From NCBI GenBank assembly GCA_014800385.1, contig JAAVGE010000011.1, positions 11,963-75,962 on the forward strand: a stretch of 64,000 nucleotides of DNA, read 5' to 3'. The translations under genes were made by a program, and so were the position numbers. Shown here one piece after another: positions 1 to 62,194 of the stretch (the first letter of the stretch is position 1; every line of letters starts with the position of its first letter). This DNA comes from Bacteroidales bacterium. Lineage in GTDB: Bacteria; Bacteroidota; Bacteroidia; Bacteroidales; Muribaculaceae. The notes under the pieces are model-generated. The model was not told the origin of the DNA. It saw only the letters and a list, made by a program, of their open reading frames with translations, and searched no databases.

Positions 1-1577
1 TTGTTTTTTATGGAATTGATAAAGTTGTTGTACTGTTTATCTCCTCCCTCCCAGTTCTTGTTTGATGCGGCTCCGTCAAAAATGCTGCCGGGAGTCATCA
101 TCATCGCCTGGTACTGTGAGTTTGAACCGATGAACGCATCGTTTCGGAAAATGAAACGTCCGCCATCGACCGAGTAACGGATCTGGTAGAGCCATCCGGG
201 CATGAATTTGCCCTTGTTGTCGTCTGCGAAACGGAAAGCGAACTGACGTAGATAAGCCTCAACCTTACCTAAATGAACGGGATCGATTTTCACGAAGGGC
301 ACTTCATGTTTCACACCCTCCTTCAATCGCTGGATGAGTCCGTGGAGGCCATAATATTTGTCGGATGTGTTCAGAGCATGAGAGGCTCCGTGTGACACCA
401 GCACGAGGTTTGACAGAGAGAACATCTGTGCTATTTTTTCCATGAAGGGGTTAACCGAACCCTCAGGTTTATAGAAACTTTCGGCTGAGAAATTCAGAAA
501 ACGTCCGTCATCGGTCTGCTCGACCGTGCGGTAGAAGCAGGGCATATTATCGGCATTGGTGTTCACCTCCAGTTTGGGCTGGGTGAAGAAGTCATAGGCA
601 GCCATTGCCGACATCAGTTCAACAACGTGGCATGGATTTTTCTGATCGCCGCCACCGGTGAGGAGTTTTCCTCCTTCGGTGATGTCGTGGCGCATAATCT
701 GAGGCCATCCGATGTGATAAAGGCGGCGGTAGTAAGTCTTGACTGTCGGATCCTGACGGTAGAAGTCGAGAGCGGCCTGCGAGTTCAACGCGAAATTGCG
801 TGAGTCGGCGACAACCTTCTCGGTCTGTTTCTGTGCCTGGTCGGGAGCGGGAAACTTGAAGTAATCGGTAAGGAGCGACGCGCCGAAAATAACATTTTCG
901 GGGTCAAGGGTGTTCGTGCCGTCCGAGATTATGCGGACAGCCTCATTGAGGGCACGCGGCACCACGGGGATTGAACTTGCGCCTGTGCCGCCGAACACTG
1001 AGCCGAAGATGAACACACGTGCTCCTGCTCCTGCTGCCAGAAGTTTCTCGACAAACTCTTTCAACGCTTTTTCCTGAGGGAGAATCTTATCCTCACCCTT
1101 CATATAGGCGTTGCGTGCAGCCTCAACGATGCCGTTGTACATCAGCATGCTGCCCAGATGGGTCTGTGCGCGGTAGCCGTGCGAAAGGTTGAAATTCTGA
1201 ACGGTTTCCTTGTCGAGGAAAAGGTCGGCAAGGTCCTGATTGTCATGGTCATCGTCGCTGATATTGGCAAGATTGCGGTAAGATACGCGGTTTCCTGAAT
1301 AGTCAGTGGCGAATTTATATAGATTGAGTTTGGCCGTGAAGAAAGAGTCCTTCGTTGCCACACCCCCCTGCTGGTTAGAGGCAGAGGATTTGATGTCGTT
1401 GTATAAGGCTATGAGGTTTTCAGTACGGTCTTTGTTGCCGTTACCGGTGTCGGTGTCGATGGTCAGGATGTCAATTTCCTGTCCGTCGAACATCCCCATT
1501 GCGCAGAGGTGGACAAATGATTCCAGACAGCGCATGCCTGTTCCACCAATGCCGATTACAAAAAGTTTATCGTTCAT
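1..1577 (-). CDS. Tubulin/FtsZ-superfamily GTPase-like protein. First 525 codons only; the ORF is open to the left window edge.
   Basis: Hand translation from the ATG at 1577-1575 gives MNDKLFVIGIGGTGMRCLESFVHLCAMGMFDGQEIDILTIDTDTGNGNKDRTENL... I checked every codon of this frame down to position 3 and found no stop. It has an FtsZ T1-loop-like VIGIGGTG at the N-terminus and a T4-signature-like RVFIFGSVFGGTGASSIPVV at residues 187-206 (nt 961-1020). The family call rests on motif recall only. Confidence 0.6.
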   Translation of the reverse strand, partial: MNDKLFVIGIGGTGMRCLESFVHLCAMGMFDGQEIDILTIDTDTGNGNKDRTENLIALYNDIKSSASNQQGGVATKDSFFTAKLNLYKFATDYSGNRVSYRNLANISDDDHDNQDLADLFLDKETVQNFNLSHGYRAQTHLGSMLMYNGIVEAARNAYMKGEDKILPQEKALKEFVEKLLAAGAGARVFIFGSVFGGTGASSIPVVPRALNEAVRIISDGTNTLDPENVIFGASLLTDYFKFPAPDQAQKQTEKVVADSRNFALNSQAALDFYRQDPTVKTYYRRLYHIGWPQIMRHDITEGGKLLTGGGDQKNPCHVVELMSAMAAYDFFTQPKLEVNTNADNMPCFYRTVEQTDDGRFLNFSAESFYKPEGSVNPFMEKIAQMFSLSNLVLVSHGASHALNTSDKYYGLHGLIQRLKEGVKHEVPFVKIDPVHLGKVEAYLRQFAFRFADDNKGKFMPGWLYQIRYSVDGGRFIFRNDAFIGSNSQYQAMMMTPGSIFDGAASNKNWEGGDKQYNNFINSIKN

Positions 1578-1598
1578 AAGATTAAGGTAGATAACGTA

Positions 1599-2075
1599 TT
1601 AGAACCAAGATCCGAGTTTGGATGACTTGAATGCCTTGCTGAGGATGAAACCGATTGCAACGAATGCCACAAACGAACAAATTGAAACTAAACCTACGTT
1701 GGTGAGCAGTTCACTCATTTTCTTCACCACATCCTGACCGTTCTCCACAACGTAATGTCCTTTGAATTCCTGTTCGGTGTAATAAACGTGACAGGTGAAG
1801 TAATTGGTTACGAATGCAACAATGGGGGTTGCAACCGCGAATATCCAGAAAATGATTTTACGGGTTGAGTTATCTGTTCCGCTGGGGCGGAAAGGAATTG
1901 CGTTTGACCAGAGGATGGCTATGAGCAGCAGAGCCACCAGAACTATGGCGCCCCACATCAATGGCCATTCTATTCCGGGTATCGCAGCCTTTGTTGTTTC
2001 GGCTGCCTGTTGAAATCTACTACCGGTTGAGCCGCCACCCTGACGGGCAATAAACAGGAGAACATTTAATAACAT
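1599..2075 (-). CDS. Small integral membrane protein (158 aa, about 3 predicted TM helices)
   Basis: ATG confirmed at 2075. Hydrophobic stretches include WGAIVLVALLLIAILW, IIFWIFAVATPIVAFV and VGLVSICSFVAFVAIGFIL. It lies 21 nt upstream of the tubulin-like gene and 34 nt downstream of the lipoprotein gene, on the same strand. Confidence 0.6.
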   Translation of the reverse strand: MLLNVLLFIARQGGGSTGSRFQQAAETTKAAIPGIEWPLMWGAIVLVALLLIAILWSNAIPFRPSGTDNSTRKIIFWIFAVATPIVAFVTNYFTCHVYYTEQEFKGHYVVENGQDVVKKMSELLTNVGLVSICSFVAFVAIGFILSKAFKSSKLGSWF

Positions 2076-2109
2076 AACAATAGATATTTTTTGGTTTATA
2101 ATTACTTAA

Positions 2110-3747
2110 TTAATCTTCGCTATCTTCTTCTGACTGAGCGTAGTAGTCATAAAGTTTATCAAGATCCGGATAAAGATTCTGCAGGAAATCCTTGTCATAT
2201 TCATCCTTGTGGGTGTCAGAAGTGCCGAATGGAGAGATGTAATATGTGTAGAGCACTTTTCCCTTAGGACTTACTTCATGCAGTGCGAGACGGATTGATT
2301 CAGAAAGATTGTCGTAGTTTCCCCACTTGAACAGGTCATCCAGTTCGGTGTCTTTCAGGTAGTTGACATCGCTGATTACAATATCAACACGGATAAGATC
2401 ATCAGAAGGATAAGACTTTGTAAGTCCGTTAAGCGTTACCGGAGTTTTATTCTCTGTGTTGAAATCCTCGCTGAAAGTGAATCCTACTTCACGGTAACCG
2501 GGATGTGATTTCCCTCCGTTTTCTTCATAACCCTTAATTATTTTAGTAGGCTCATTGACAAATACAAAGAGATCTTTTATTTCATTGAACGGCATGGGAT
2601 TGTACTCGAACTCAGGTTTGAGTTTGCCATCCGGTTCATAGTACGGGTCGTCATTACTATTCGTAGGAGTAGCCTTGATGGCGGTCAGATGATTATGGAA
2701 AGCCTCATAATCATCCTGGACGGAGTAAGTGTTTATGTCCAGTTTCACATCTTTGTAAGGAAGATCATCTGTGCTTATGAAAAGGTTCTGGGCGAAATAG
2801 CGGAAAACGGTAGGTGGATAATCACGGTTAGTGCCACGGAGTTTGAGAGCAGCCATGCGGTTTATTCGCTGAAAAGATTCCTCAAGCGGGTAAAACTCTG
2901 AGCAATACTCGTCCATCTTAACGTAATGACAATCCTCATCAGGATTTTCGCATACTGTTGTCACATCATCTTCACCTTTTTCGTTGTGATAGTTACCACC
3001 TTTGGCGGCCGAGGGGTAATCGGTGATAATCTTGTAGTTGTTGTTACCCATGGTGAAGGTACGGTAGTTGACTGGCTTGCCGTTCAGTCCGGCCTCGATT
3101 TTTTTCATCAGTTTGCCATCCTTACCGTCGAAAACGGTGTAGAACAGTTTCTTATCCTTACCTTTCTCCTTGTAGTCAACGATATAGAATGTGATGTCGT
3201 AGCCTCGTTTCAGCCACTCGATGAAATACTGTTTTGCGTATGCTCCCTTGAATATTTTGCCCCCGTCGTATTCTTCATAGTCGGTTACAAGCAGGGCAGG
3301 TTTGTTCTGGTCGATAATCTGCTGCAATGCCTTGCGTATGGGAGCAGCCTGCTGAGCATAGTTCTTGGGGTTCATTATATCCTGGAATATCTGCTCTGAG
3401 TCGCCGGTCATCGGTTTCAGTTCCAGACTTCCGAGAGAATAGAATTCGGTTTCGGGAGTGGTCACGGCATTGACGATATTGTGCAGGTTTTCCTTGCTTG
3501 TCGGGTCATTGTAAGCCATGTTCACACCGTCGGAGAAGTCGAAATAAGCGGCATATCCGGGTGCCAGAGGCTTCACGTCGATGGTGTCGCGCGCTTCCAT
3601 GTAGCGGGTGATGTATTCTGTGTTAGGGTAGACTTTCTCCGCTGCGGACTCTGTGTCCTTATTACAACCTGAAGTCATAATGGAAAACGCACCAACCCCC
3701 ACCAGTGCCACAGCGCCTAAAGCAAAAGATAGAAATTTCTTATTCAT
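2110..3747 (-). CDS. Lipoprotein, 545 aa, function unknown, with an acidic C-terminal tail
   Basis: ATG at 3747. Signal peptide plus lipobox: MNKKFLSFALGAVALVGVGAFSIMTSGC. The segment NKPALLVTDYEEYDGG is reminiscent of a vWA-type beta-strand/acidic motif (weak). The protein ends ...YYAQSEEDSED. Confidence 0.75.
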   Translation of the reverse strand: MNKKFLSFALGAVALVGVGAFSIMTSGCNKDTESAAEKVYPNTEYITRYMEARDTIDVKPLAPGYAAYFDFSDGVNMAYNDPTSKENLHNIVNAVTTPETEFYSLGSLELKPMTGDSEQIFQDIMNPKNYAQQAAPIRKALQQIIDQNKPALLVTDYEEYDGGKIFKGAYAKQYFIEWLKRGYDITFYIVDYKEKGKDKKLFYTVFDGKDGKLMKKIEAGLNGKPVNYRTFTMGNNNYKIITDYPSAAKGGNYHNEKGEDDVTTVCENPDEDCHYVKMDEYCSEFYPLEESFQRINRMAALKLRGTNRDYPPTVFRYFAQNLFISTDDLPYKDVKLDINTYSVQDDYEAFHNHLTAIKATPTNSNDDPYYEPDGKLKPEFEYNPMPFNEIKDLFVFVNEPTKIIKGYEENGGKSHPGYREVGFTFSEDFNTENKTPVTLNGLTKSYPSDDLIRVDIVISDVNYLKDTELDDLFKWGNYDNLSESIRLALHEVSPKGKVLYTYYISPFGTSDTHKDEYDKDFLQNLYPDLDKLYDYYAQSEEDSED

Positions 3748-3829
3748 GGATATAATTCTGATAATCAGTTCGGTTTATAATTAATTTCGCCTGAAAGGTA
3801 GCGTATTGACACACTACTCCTTCAAAAAG

Positions 3830-3837
3830 CAAAATTA
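3830..3837 (-). promoter_or_regulatory. Candidate Bacteroidetes -7 box (TAATTTTG on the minus strand) for the lipoprotein/membrane/tubulin-like operon
   Basis: The plus strand reads caaaatta, which matches TAnnTTTG on the minus strand. It lies 83 nt upstream of the ATG at 3747. Confidence 0.3.
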
Positions 3838-3962
3838 AACTTTTTTTTCTTTATTCCCAAGTTTTAGTGCGGAAAAGTGAAAAAACTCTTATATAAACCG
3901 AATCAAACCAAGCAGGCAGCGTTATCAGAGGTCATTTTGTATGGGTTGTATTACATGACAGA

Positions 3963-4158
3963 GGGGGTGTGTCAAAAATTGATGTAGCCTGGTATTTTTT
4001 ATGAGTTGTACGCTCATGGACAGTGATGTATATTCGGCGGATGCTCCAGGGAGCATCCCTACACTCTTAATAATCAACACATTAGCCCTGTAGGGCTGCT
4101 CCATGGAGCAGCCGCATAATCATGTTTACGGCGAGGATGCGCCTATTTTGAAACACCC
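3963..4158 (+). repeat. MITE/REP-like palindromic intergenic repeat, copy A
   Basis: Terminal inverted repeats are GGGGTGTGTCAAAAATTG ... CCTATTTTGAAACACCC. Internal palindromes are GGATGCTCCAGGGAGCATCC and GGCTGCTCCATGGAGCAGCC. It aligns along its length with 25154-25344 (reverse complement) and 61989-62140. Confidence 0.8.
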
Positions 4159-4228
4159 ACAAATTTGCAGGTATTAATAGGAGGATAGAATTATCCTTAT
4201 CACGTTATTTTGCAACCACTGCCCTTGA

Positions 4229-5466: not shown

Positions 5467-7509
5467 TTATCCTACCTTTCCACCGGGAGTAGCAGGATTG
5501 ATCGTTGTTACAACCGAGAGGGAGCCGTCGGCATTCACTGCAGAGAGAATCATACCTTGCGACTCAATCCCCTGAATGACACGCGGAGCGAAATTGGCAA
5601 CGAAAACCACCTGTTTGCCAACGAGTTGCTCAGGTTCATAATACTGAGCGATACCGCTGACAATGGTGCGCTGCTCCATGCCGTCGTCAATGAGGAATTT
5701 GAGCAGTTTCTTTGATTTTTTCACCTTGGAACATTCCACAACGGTGCCCACACGCATGTCAAGTTTTTCAAAATCCTCGAACGCAACTGCGGGTGCCACC
5801 GGTTCGGGCTTGAAGTTCTTCAACTGGTTCTCTTTTTTTATGCGCTCCAGACGATCAAGTTGCCCCTGGATGACATCATCTTCAATCTTGTCGAACAGCA
5901 GTTCGGCTTTGCCTAACTCTGTTCCTTCGGCAATCAGGTCATCGGAGCCGAGCATATCCCAATTGATGTTTTCCATGCGGAGCATGCCGCGCAGTTTGTC
6001 GCTCATGAAGGGGAGGAACGGTTCAAAGGCAATTGCCAGATTACCACAGAGTTGCAGAGCAACGTTAAGGATTGTGGCAGTACGTTCCATATCGGTTTTT
6101 GCCACCTTCCAGGGTTCTGTTTCCTGAAGATACTTATTACCGAGACGGGCAATGTTCATAGCCTCCTTGAGAGCCTCGCGGAAGTGGAAGTTATCCAGAT
6201 TTTCCTCCAGTGCAGCCTTGATGGTCTTCACCTCGGCAAGTGTTTCACTATCAATGGGTTCAAGTGCGCCACGAACAGGAACAACTCCACCGAAATATTT
6301 GTGGGTCAGGACAATGGCACGGTTGACAAAGTTACCCAGGATTGCCACCAGTTCGCTGTTGTTACGCGCCTGGAAGTCGCGCCAGGTAAAGTCGTTATCC
6401 TTTGTTTCGGGAGCATTGGCTGTAAGCACATAGCGCAGCACATCCTGCTTGCCGGGGAAATCCTGAAGATATTCGTGGAGCCAGATGGCCCAGTTGCGTG
6501 ATGTTGAAATTTTGTCACCTTCAAGGTTAAGGAACTCATTTGAAGGCACATTGTCGGGCAACTGATAGCCATCGCCGTAAGCCATAAGCATGGCGGGGAA
6601 CACTATGCAGTGGAAAACAATGTTGTCCTTACCGATGAAATGTATTATGCGTGATTCAGGATCTTTCCAATATTTTTCCCATGAGTCGGGGAGCAGTTCC
6701 TTGGTGTTGGAGATATAGCCGATGGGGGCGTCGAACCACACGTAAAGCACCTTTCCGTCGGCACCCTCAACAGGAACGGGGACACCCCAGTCGAGGTCAC
6801 GGCTCACGGCACGGGGCTGCAAACCCAAGTCAAGCCATGATTTACACTGTCCGTAGACATTGGGACGCCACTCTTTGTGTTCCTCAAGAATCCATTTTTC
6901 CAGTGCGGGCTGCCACTTGTCAAGCGGGAGATACCAGTGGTGTGTTTCACGCAGCACGGGAGTTGAACCGGTAATGGCACTCTTGGGATTGATGAGGTCA
7001 GTGGCATTGAGCGACGAGCCGCACTTTTCGCACTGGTCACCGTAGGCACCCTGTGCGTGGCAGTTGGGACATTCACCGGTCACATAGCGGTCAGCCAGGA
7101 ACTGGCCTGCTTTTTCATCATAGAGTTGCATGGATGTTTTCTCCACGAACTCACCCTTGTCATAAAGGTGACGGAAAAACTCCGATGCAGTTTCGTTATG
7201 AATATCGGAAGTGGTGCGGGAATAGACATCAAACGATATACCCAACCCCTCAAACGAATCCTTGATTATATTGTGATAGCGGTCTACGATATCCTGAGGA
7301 GTGACCCCCTCAGCCTTTGCCTTGATAGTGATGGGCACACCGTGTTCATCGCTTCCGCCAATCATTTTCACATCCTCACCGCGCAGACGCAGGTAACGGG
7401 TATAGATGTCGGCAGGTACATAAACACCGGCAAGATGACCGATGTGGACAGGACCGTTAGCGTAGGGTAACGCTGTGGTCACCAGGGTTCGTTTGAATTT
7501 CTTTTCCAT
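5467..7509 (-). CDS. metG: Methionine--tRNA ligase
   Basis: Motifs: [16 protein letters not shown] (HIGH), [10 protein letters not shown] (KMSKS-like), a [18 protein letters not shown] zinc knuckle, and a C-terminal EMAP/tRNA-binding domain ([21 protein letters not shown]). I trimmed the start to the ATG at 7509 ([12 protein letters not shown]), dropping a 28-codon upstream extension. Confidence 0.95.
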
Positions 7510-7652
7510 TATATGATAGTGTGATTCTGTTTCAAATTTATATTCTGCAAATATAGTAAATTTTGGTAAAATGGTCAAACTTTTTACCCACAAGTAGATA
7601 ACGTACCCTCAAAATTCTATCCAAATTTCTCTTCTCCCCTACCCTGCAATCT

Positions 7653-25153: not shown

Positions 25154-25344
25154 AGGGTGTGTCAAAATAGGCACAACCTCGCCATATTCAGGATTATGCG
25201 GCTGCTCCATAGAGCAGCCCTACAGGGTTAATACACTGATTGTCAAGATGGTAGGGATGCTCCCTGGAGCATCCGCCGAATATACATCACTATCCATAAA
25301 CGTACAAAACATAAAAAATACAGGTTCAATTTTTGACACAGCCC
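25154..25344 (-). repeat. MITE/REP-like palindromic intergenic repeat, copy B (inverted relative to copy A)
   Basis: Its reverse complement aligns with copy A across both TIRs (GGGCTGTGTCAAAAATTG ... CCTATTTTGACACACCC) and both internal palindromes. The second palindrome carries one substitution (GGCTGCTCTATGGAGCAGCC). Confidence 0.8.
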
Positions 25345-61988: not shown

Positions 61989-62194
61989 GAGGGCTGTATC
62001 AAAAGTTGATGCAGCCTGATTTTTTATATATTGTACGTTCATGGACAGTGATGTATATTCGGCGGATGCTCCAGGGAGCACCCCTACCCTCTTGACAATC
62101 AACACATTAGCCCTATACGGCTGCTCCATGGAGCAGCCGTATGCAAATAAATACAAGAGTCTACTTGGTATTGTTATGAGGGGGAGGTGTGCAA
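61989..62194 (+). repeat. MITE/REP-like repeat, copy C (left arm and both palindromes conserved, right arm divergent)
   Basis: GAGGGCTGTATCAAAAGTTG..., then GGATGCTCCAGGGAGCACCC and GGCTGCTCCATGGAGCAGCC (62119-62138). After 62140 it no longer aligns with copies A and B. A left-TIR-like GAGGGGGAGGTGTGCAA reappears in direct orientation at 62178-62194. Confidence 0.7.

Follow-up and report, generated by a model that had tools for sequence, protein, structure and literature searches.

A compact FtsZl1-type tubulin-like protein is encoded with an Hsp70-like partner in a conserved five-gene operon of Bacteroidota

Within the tubulin/FtsZ superfamily, the FtsZl1/Tubulin_2 proteins form the most divergent branch, and since 2010 they have been known only from sequence analysis. 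As defined, they keep the T1 and T4 loops, separated by family-specific inserts, and have no alignable T6-H7 region or FtsZ-type C-terminal domain; the GTPase domain is usually followed by a coiled coil and a helical C-terminal domain, in proteins of ~1000 amino acids (aa) (Makarova and Koonin 2010, PMC2875224). Besides many membrane proteins, FtsZl1 operons encode von Willebrand factor A (vWA) proteins, novel P-loop GTPases, kinases and OmpA proteins, and a role in membrane remodelling was proposed (PMC2875224). The Magnetospirillum operon amb2959-2961 comprises two vWA genes and a 1626-aa ‘DnaK (HSP70)’ protein, and the sole true Bacteroidales FtsZl1 in the 2010 tables is BACCAC_02057 of Bacteroides caccae, a 913-aa protein in a different context (PMC2875224). 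A 2023 study equates ‘FtsZ-like’ proteins with the Pfam family Tubulin_2 (PMC9871819). Here we analyse an operon at the left edge of a stretch of 64,000 nucleotides from a Bacteroidales bacterium of the Muribaculaceae (contig JAAVGE010000011.1, positions 11,963 to 75,962; hereafter the window), which encodes a lipoprotein, a small membrane protein and a tubulin-like protein. A preliminary description of the window remarked that distant FtsZ-like families have been described only computationally, and this fits FtsZl1 (PMC2875224), for which no function, structure or biochemistry was found in the searchable literature.

Two other kinds of system are relevant to this operon. DO-GTPase and GAP1 define ‘GTPase-centric’ conflict systems, which have been read as membrane-proximal, regulated assemblies of cytoskeleton-like complexes (Kaur et al. 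2020, PMC7159879). The second are the Ter stress-response clusters (tellurite, phage and colicin resistance), with TerD, TerC, TerB and the vWA-type TerY.

All three window genes lie on the minus strand, in the order lipoprotein, membrane protein, tubulin-like protein, according to the list of open reading frames (ORFs) and our translation. The genes and the motifs discussed below are located as follows.

3747-2110, minus strand: lipoprotein ORF, 545 aa (ORF list)
2075-1599, minus strand: small membrane-protein ORF, 158 aa as listed
1577-<1, minus strand: tubulin-like gene (Tubulin_2/FtsZl1 type, short form), codons 1-525 of 558 in the window
1536..1553, minus strand: codons of the T1-like loop G9-I-G-G-T-G14, read from the sequence, with G11-G14 invariant in 30 relatives
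972..992, minus strand: codons of the T4 signature-like loop G196-G-T-G-A-S-S202, invariant in 30 relatives and aligning to PF00091 and E. coli FtsZ
3526..3540, minus strand: codons of the D70-F-S72-D-G74 motif (a DxSxG variant of DxSxS) resembling a metal ion-dependent adhesion site (MIDAS), from 38 homologues
3268..3297, minus strand: codons of A151-L-L-V-T-D156-Y-E-E-Y160, resembling the vWA beta4 ‘TD’ motif, from conservation among homologues
3830..3837, minus strand: candidate Bacteroides-type -7 promoter box TAATTTTG, ~83 nucleotides (nt) upstream of the lipoprotein ATG, read from the sequence

The consensus of the Bacteroides -7 box is TAnnTTTG. The preliminary description reported three co-directional genes with gaps of 34 and 21 nt behind an upstream region of 480 bp; we measured the same gaps (2109-2076 between the lipoprotein and membrane-protein genes, 1598-1578 between the membrane-protein and tubulin-like genes) and an intergenic region of 481 bp (3748-4228). 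Its third gene, absent from the ORF list and credited with at least 525 open codons, is likewise real. Translation of the minus strand from the ATG at 1577 is free of stop codons for 525 codons down to base 1, an open frame with a chance probability in DNA of ~50% GC content of ~(61/64)^525, roughly 1e-11. The public protein P0001 (558 aa, ‘hypothetical protein’, from a Bacteroidales metagenome-assembled genome, MAG) is 100% identical across the 525 residues in the window, and therefore 33 residues and the stop codon lie past the left window edge. The ORF list lacks this gene because ORFs running off the window are unlisted.

On its sequence, the protein belongs to the tubulin/FtsZ superfamily and is of the Tubulin_2/FtsZl1 type, in a short form. 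It matches Tubulin_2 (PF13809) at 29.8 bits against a gathering score of 27, a marginal and purely N-terminal match that places residues 7-216 on profile positions 2-192 of 356. The Tubulin/FtsZ GTPase domain family PF00091 scores 23 bits, under its cut-off of 33, with residues 155-213 around the second glycine loop on profile positions 77-137. The relatives give stronger matches: among 30 with 46-88% identity, all match Tubulin_2 (best E-value 4.9e-8) and 29 match PF00091 at E<0.01 (best 1.2e-6), and no Rossmann or P-loop family appeared in the Pfam scan of these 30 proteins. The two glycine-rich segments that were first read as T1- and T4-like loops in the right order with extra spacing, VIGIGGTG (residues 7-14) and FIFGSVFGGTGASSIPVV (residues 189-206), both contain invariant residues. 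In the T1 loop FVIGIGGTG (residues 6-14), G11, G12, T13 and G14 are invariant in the 30 relatives, as are G196, G197, T198, G199, A200, S201 and S202 in the T4 variant FGGTGASS, which differs from the tubulin signature GGGTG(S/T)G by one glycine fewer and by serine in place of the last glycine. The spacing from T1 to T4 is ~180 residues. Other invariant stretches are a T2-like L38-T-x-D41-T-D43 and a T5-like T237-x-Y-F-x-F242 resembling TKPFxFEG of FtsZ, which, with the other FtsZ motifs used for comparison, is general knowledge.

An AlphaFold2 model built from the alignment of relatives (predicted TM-score (pTM) 0.87, mean predicted local distance difference test score (pLDDT) 79.7) leads to the same superfamily. 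In Foldseek searches of the PDB, the best matches were to FtsZ (9isk_A, E-value 8.8e-4, probability 1.00; 4u39_E, TM-score 0.40 normalised to the target), and alpha-, beta- and gamma-tubulins matched with probabilities of 0.93-1.0, over aligned spans of 290-330 columns. In BFVD, a phage tubulin came first (E-value 1.5e-4, probability 1.00), followed by PhuZ and phage FtsZ. Thus, the tubulin/FtsZ fold proposed from the two loops holds in both the family and the structure searches. Direct sequence comparison gave little: PDB searches with the single sequence or a 30-sequence profile gave no meaningful match, and hhalign of the family against E. coli FtsZ, a single-sequence template that is too weak, aligned the T4 stretch alone (to GGGTGTG) with a probability of 1.3%. 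The C-terminal half of the model is mixed alpha/beta, without a long coiled coil, and Pfam finds no FtsZ_C domain in the protein. As the preliminary description also stated, this is not canonical FtsZ, an identity that we reject on the lack of FtsZ_C, the ~180-residue T1-T4 spacing and the absence of a dcw context. A phage origin of the gene was rejected, as no phage record has a homologue.

The preliminary description expected further partner genes to the left of the window, and three were found on L001, a 111-kb contig that carries an identical tubulin-like gene. There, the tubulin-like gene is followed after 18 nt by a gene for a 1330-aa protein (hereafter the giant) and then by genes for a 632-aa protein (the fifth protein) and a 59-aa membrane protein. 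Next come peptidase M28, SufE and a major facilitator superfamily transporter; upstream are asparaginase and methionyl-tRNA synthetase (MetRS), as in the window. None of the three proteins has a significant Pfam match.

At the level of motifs, the C-terminal half of the giant carries the phosphate-1, phosphate-2 and adenosine motifs of the Hsp70/actin (ASKHA; acetate and sugar kinases/Hsc70/actin) superfamily. All members share GxDFGSTN(T/S)S.AY near residue 600 and CFD(I/V)GGSTTDI near residues 920-1000. In the 1330-aa protein, phosphate-1 is GIDFGSTNTSVAY (~601), phosphate-2 is CFDIGGSTTDIT (~960) and the adenosine motif is FAGKGAR, in ASKHA order. D-F-G, D-x-G-G-x-T-x-D and the downstream G-K-G are invariant in 21 sequences including distant ones, and the motifs of distant giants, GIDFGTTNT and DVGGGTTDIS, resemble those of Hsp70 still more. 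All 32 PDB matches of a profile of the ATPase region are to Hsp70 (DnaK, mortalin, SSB1, HSPA2) or to MreB/actin-like proteins (best E-value 0.013). Recurrent weak Pfam matches of the giant are to MutL (PF13941), Hydantoinase_A and FtsA, which are families of the actin-ATPase clan. Against DnaK, hhalign aligned phosphate-1 alone (probability 23%). The giant also has ~580 N-terminal residues and a long proline-rich insert unlike chaperone Hsp70s, and Pfam scans detected no substrate-binding domain.

The fifth protein consists of a conserved N-terminal module of ~400 aa and a variable C-terminal module. The latter is a bona fide HSP70 in a Prolixibacteraceae MAG (L082:15550-18255; residues 394-883, 294 bits), TM2 plus TonB_C in a Flavobacteriales MAG (L069:15244-18402) and NfeD in two other members. 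From the consensus and a VVDLGST motif in the metagenomic locus L091, the N-terminal module is suspected, but not demonstrated, to be a degenerate Hsp70 lobe; comparisons with DnaK and with the giant detected no relation. In the PDB, the fifth protein matched designed proteins with helical repeats, and these matches were discarded as spurious.

The matches of an exhaustive profile search with the tubulin-like protein, clustered at 50% identity, comprise 1633 representatives; conservation reaches furthest in the N-terminal ~335 residues. A scan of species-representative genomes gave 300 candidate stretches, from which the best 80 loci were taken, and the component searches covered 88 loci. These loci were found through conserved tubulin-like peptides, and so the sample is biased towards the tubulin-like subfamily of the window. 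Carriers include Muribaculaceae, Prevotella/Segatella copri, Bacteroides, Barnesiella, Pedobacter, Mucilaginibacter, Chitinophaga, Flavobacterium and Prolixibacteraceae, among others. Iterated hidden Markov model (HMM) searches of all ORFs detected homologues of the lipoprotein in 84 of the 88 loci, of the membrane protein in 86, of the giant in 79 and of the fifth protein in 73. The order lipoprotein, membrane protein, tubulin-like protein, giant, fifth protein is invariant in the 88 Bacteroidota loci, and each absence coincides with a contig end. The three genes first described together do co-occur, and they are the first three of a five-gene operon, to which the window's clade adds the 59-aa membrane protein.

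Across 52 complete, non-close loci, median identity to the window proteins is 46% for the tubulin-like protein, 39% for the giant, 31% for the membrane protein, 30% for the lipoprotein and 23% for the fifth protein. By this measure, the two predicted nucleoside triphosphatases form a conserved core, and divergence is fastest in the fifth protein and the extracytoplasmic parts. Two genomes each hold two divergent paralogous operons (L016 and L033 in the CAAGDX01 MAG, L071 and L077 in the JAAVFG01 MAG); the tubulin-like pair of the CAAGDX01 MAG has 59% and 45% identity to the window's protein. The same core occurs at ~33% identity in L090 and L091. L091 encodes a 430-aa lipoprotein, a 154-aa membrane protein, the tubulin-like protein, a 1205-aa giant, a 908-aa protein, two TerD proteins and an OmpA-domain protein. 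Mobilizable plasmids of Picosynechococcus and Gloeothece encode a small transmembrane protein, a tubulin-like protein of ~510 aa and a giant of ~1100 aa; the Bacteroidota HMMs detect the latter two, and one plasmid protein is annotated as a ‘tubulin-like domain-containing protein’. On the plasmid of Picosynechococcus PCC 7003 (L093; 1-6446, 8208-18734), the core adjoins a complete alternate F1F0 (N-type) ATPase operon; after the core come a membrane protein described as ‘prefoldin domain-containing’ and a protein with a TM2 domain.

The lipoprotein has a lipobox (..TSGC28) with C28 kept in at least 90% of homologues. Enrichment of aspartate and glutamate at +4 to +7 after this cysteine, sought as a surface signal resembling the lipoprotein export signal (LES), is just modest. 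Its AlphaFold2 model (pLDDT 85.8, pTM 0.83) has an N-terminal domain of alternating beta strands and alpha helices, and the predicted layout is a vWA-like alpha/beta domain (residues ~60-235), then middle and C-terminal domains rich in beta strands, and an acidic helix at the C-terminus. The preliminary description singled out PALLVTDYEEY (residues 150-160) as possibly vWA-like, and this segment falls in one of the two best-conserved blocks, D70-F-S72-x-G74 and A151-L-L-V-T155-D156-x-E158-E159-Y160. In 38 homologues, D70, S72, G74, A151, D156, E158, E159 and Y160 are invariant, and L153 and T155 are kept in at least 90%. Nearly all the best Foldseek matches of the model in the PDB are vWA domains (probability up to 0.95, E-values of 0.06-0.4, 100-150 columns), including mussel PTMP1 (with a MIDAS site), Rpn10, the B. 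fragilis aerotolerance (BatA-type) protein, factor B, integrin I domains, TFIIH p44 and CMG2. No Pfam family, VWA included, and no PDB sequence was matched, even with a 32-sequence profile. The lipoproteins of distant operons have DATTS (L091) or, on the Gloeothece plasmid, the canonical HVDGSGSM...VFVTDLEQNGGD. A derived vWA domain with an altered MIDAS is supported, but not proven.

The small membrane protein has three hydrophobic transmembrane (TM) helices in the family hydropathy profile and consensus, as was first noted, and its homologue is directly upstream of the tubulin-like gene in 86 of the 88 loci. It ends in a conserved basic tail, GF.LSK.FK..KLG.WF; by the positive-inside rule, this tail and loop 1 (RK) are predicted to face the cytoplasm. 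Family members are typically ~113 aa long compared with the 158 aa listed here. Because most homologues lack an equivalent of residues 1-39, Met40 (base 1958) may be the true start.

The flanking genes differ from clade to clade. Among the 73 loci with a visible downstream side, two TerD genes (Pfam 143 bits) follow immediately in 47, with TerC also present in 14 (159 bits), and the TerD pair is usually followed by a membrane protein of ~245 aa with a CW_7 repeat (42 loci). DO-GTPase2 is encoded directly after the five-gene core in 13 loci (29.2 bits against a cut-off of 27). A GAP1-N2 protein of ~790 aa is likewise encoded directly after the core in 11, at a sub-threshold 22.3 bits (cut-off 24). 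TerD and DO-GTPase2 are found together at one locus, and 15 loci, the window's clade among them, have neither. A P-type cation ATPase was considered as a recurrent neighbour and rejected (1 of 88 loci). Separately, a protein of ~360 aa with an HSDR_N/PD-(D/E)XK-like nuclease domain (59 bits) is encoded close to the operon at L031:4630-5745 and in seven other loci, mostly of Pedobacter type, and its gene is directly upstream of the operon in five loci. Its role may be that of an effector-like partner, or the gene may be a restriction-related neighbour.

Like FtsZl1, the window protein has a divergent N-terminal GTPase domain with conserved T1 and T4 loops, large inserts between them and no FtsZ_C or Tubulin_C domain; a putative vWA-type protein that bears a signal peptide is co-encoded, as are membrane proteins, and some relatives adjoin ‘new’ P-loop GTPases. 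Unlike typical FtsZl1, it has 558 aa rather than ~1000, lacks a long coiled coil and matches only the first 192 of 356 Tubulin_2 positions. A fixed five-gene Bacteroidota operon is not in the 2010 tables, and the TerD link is not mentioned there (PMC2875224). FtsZ, TubZ/PhuZ and tubulin share with it the superfamily fold by Foldseek, the glycine-rich T1 and T4 loops and a T5-like TxYFxF; they differ in that structural alignments give only ~10-14% identity, ~180 residues rather than ~85 separate T1 from T4, T7/H8 is unrecognisable, the C-terminal half of ~220 residues is unrelated and there is no division or plasmid-partition context.

The GTPase-centric systems also combine tubulin-superfamily, HSP70-family (including HSP70 without the peptide-binding domain), vWA and membrane components (PMC7159879), and the linked tubulin and HSP70 components have counterparts here in the Tubulin_2 protein, the Hsp70-like giant and the L082 HSP70 fusion. 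The window operon, however, is without the defining DO-GTPase and GAP1, and the Bacteroidota operon holds tubulin-like and Hsp70-like proteins together, mostly with TerD in place of the GTPase. The Ter clusters share vWA-type proteins and membrane components with this operon, and a TerD pair follows 47 of the 73 related operons, but the window has no Ter gene and classical ter clusters have neither tubulin-like nor Hsp70-like proteins. We found no paper describing a Bacteroidota operon of tubulin, Hsp70-like and TerD genes; the main comparative-genomics work on Ter was outside the search. FtsZl1 with vWA and membrane proteins and tubulin/HSP70 modules in conflict systems were already known computationally. 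The fixed five-gene Bacteroidota architecture, the pairing of tubulin-like and Hsp70-like proteins within a single operon, the predominance of TerD among the linked genes, the minimal operon that stands alone in the window and the plasmid-borne cyanobacterial relatives are new.

We tentatively read the operon as an envelope-spanning, nucleotide-driven assembly switch for a response to envelope stress or invaders, with a probability of roughly 0.45. A stress or conflict role is proposed because the TerD pair, TerC, DO-GTPase2 and GAP1-N2 recur as neighbours in relatives. The fast-evolving vWA lipoprotein would bind a periplasmic or envelope ligand or detect damage, and the 3-TM protein would relay the signal across the inner membrane, with its conserved cytoplasmic tail docking the tubulin-like GTPase. 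The latter would self-assemble at the membrane in a GTP-dependent manner, and two Hsp70-like partners would use ATP to build, remodel or dismantle the assembly. The output may be local remodelling of the membrane or envelope, or growth arrest. In most relatives, a TerD pair, joined by TerC in some, or else a switch of DO-GTPase and GAP1-N2 is added to the core, which the window's clade carries in its minimal stand-alone form.

Several observations weigh against a switch of this kind. HMM searches found no TerD, TerC, DO-GTPase or GAP1 gene in the whole 64-kb window, and no DO-GTPase is encoded downstream in L001. The window operon lies amid housekeeping genes (MetRS, asparaginase, peptidase M28, SufE) and not in a defence island, and its strict order conservation across the phylum would also fit a housekeeping machine. 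No recognised effector is encoded in the operon, PADLOC (2023) has no match or model for any component and neither has NCBIfam, and the lack of phage homologues noted above points the same way. The E-values behind the vWA assignment of the lipoprotein (0.06) and the ASKHA assignment of the giant (0.013) are weak. For the tubulin-like protein, FtsZ TM-scores of just 0.33-0.40 and root-mean-square deviations of 7-8 Å indicate a remote relationship. Neither a T7 catalytic loop nor an NxDxxD motif was recognised in its sequence or in the relatives' alignment, where invariant D276, directly after the long helix 259-275, is only a candidate for the acidic T7 position; T6-H7 of FtsZl1 was likewise unalignable for Makarova and Koonin (PMC2875224). 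With low TM-scores and no T7 loop found, polymerisation-coupled GTPase activity is only putative in this protein.

The strongest competing explanation, somewhat unlikely in our judgement, is the original FtsZl1 proposal of a constitutive cytoskeletal or membrane-remodelling machine that works independently of invaders. The tubulin-like protein and the actin-fold ATPases would form a scaffold on the membrane, with the 3-TM protein and the vWA lipoprotein as its tethers, and would give the envelope its shape (in the formation of outer-membrane vesicles, in envelope tethering or in cell-shape features, for instance). Gene order conserved strictly throughout the phylum, the housekeeping neighbours of the window's clade, the silence of the defence-system library and the envelope-linking fusions and neighbours (TonB_C, TM2, OmpA, CW_7) speak for such a machine, as does the membrane-remodelling inference of Makarova and Koonin (PMC2875224). 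It sits less well with the patchy, accessory look of the operon, which occurs on plasmids, is duplicated in some genomes and varies in its genomic location, with the fast divergence of the periplasmic component, and with the recurrent TerD/TerC and DO-GTPase/GAP1-N2 links, which are associated with stress and conflict systems.

A previously unrecognised composite machine is an unlikely possibility. In it, the tubulin-fold GTPase and the actin-fold (Hsp70-like) ATPases would be obligate partners anchored through the 3-TM protein and the vWA lipoprotein; on a breach of the envelope, for example by phage or bacteriocin, the machine would assemble at the inner membrane and seal or remodel the membrane or arrest the cell. 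If true, FtsZl1, a family now 15 years old, would gain its first function, and the operon would define a phylum-wide Bacteroidota system, with cyanobacterial plasmid relatives, that is distinct from the systems centred on DO-GTPase.

Less probable still is a dedicated chaperone or assembly pathway, in which Hsp70-like ATPases and the tubulin-like GTPase would fold, target or insert the co-encoded lipoprotein and membrane proteins, or another envelope client, with no filament. The Hsp70-type motifs of the giant and the true HSP70 fused to a fifth protein agree with this, vWA domains act as co-chaperone-like peptide binders in related systems (PMC7159879), and FtsZl1 may form no filaments. Against it, the operon showed neither a J-domain nor a GrpE partner, the N-terminal region and long insert of the giant are unlike chaperone Hsp70s and its substrate-binding domain was not detected, and the tubulin-like protein is the most conserved component, which is unexpected for a chaperone accessory. 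Finally, a metabolic operon in which the third gene encodes a Rossmann-type dinucleotide-binding enzyme, a fold that the preliminary description set against its own reading, is largely refuted: V-I-G-I-G-G-T-G does resemble GxGxxG and some short-chain dehydrogenases are among the Foldseek matches, but their probabilities are lower (0.3-0.75, against 0.93-1.0 for FtsZ and tubulin), tubulins also come first in BFVD, 30 of 30 relatives match only Tubulin_2/Tubulin in Pfam and GGTGAS, in the second glycine loop, can be aligned to the signature of tubulins.

The assembly-switch reading and its competitors can be addressed in culturable organisms. The compact form occurs in abundant gut groups (Muribaculaceae, Segatella/Prevotella, Bacteroides, Barnesiella) and in cultivable soil genera (Pedobacter, Mucilaginibacter, Flavobacterium, Chitinophaga), with a defined minimal gene set and targets for point mutation (T1, T4, D276, the phosphate-1 and phosphate-2 aspartates and the MIDAS-like D70 and S72). 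This makes the role of FtsZl1 testable in culturable Bacteroidota, both for polymerisation and for envelope stress versus phage defence versus membrane remodelling. It also joins three separate literatures, on FtsZl1-vWA operons, on DO-GTPase ‘tubulin/HSP70’ conflict systems and on Ter clusters.

Upstream of the operon, the window carries asparaginase and MetRS genes. The MetRS ORF (5467-7593, minus strand) is listed as 708 aa from a TTG, whereas on the identical contig the gene was called at 680 aa, and the true start is probably the internal Met of MEKKF.... Between DUF4421 and MetRS, two strains whose tubulin-like genes are identical differ by a small insertion or deletion specific to the strain (L003:2376-3585 versus L001:3677-3925): one has two minus-strand genes (177 and 238 aa) and the other a single gene of 82 aa. 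An intergenic repeat of ~125 nt is dispersed in the window, at 3994-4122, ~62019-62147 and ~25249-25330; it contains two palindromic hairpins of 20 nt, GGATGCTCCAGGGAGCATCC and GGCTGCTCCATGGAGCAGCC, separated by 55 nt. Its core, GCTCCNNGGAGC, is present in five copies in the window compared with 0.03 expected by chance, and the repeat looks like a repetitive extragenic palindromic (REP) or miniature inverted-repeat transposable element (MITE). The copy at 3994-4122 is placed between the asparaginase stop codon and the candidate operon promoter, and the repeat may double as a terminator.

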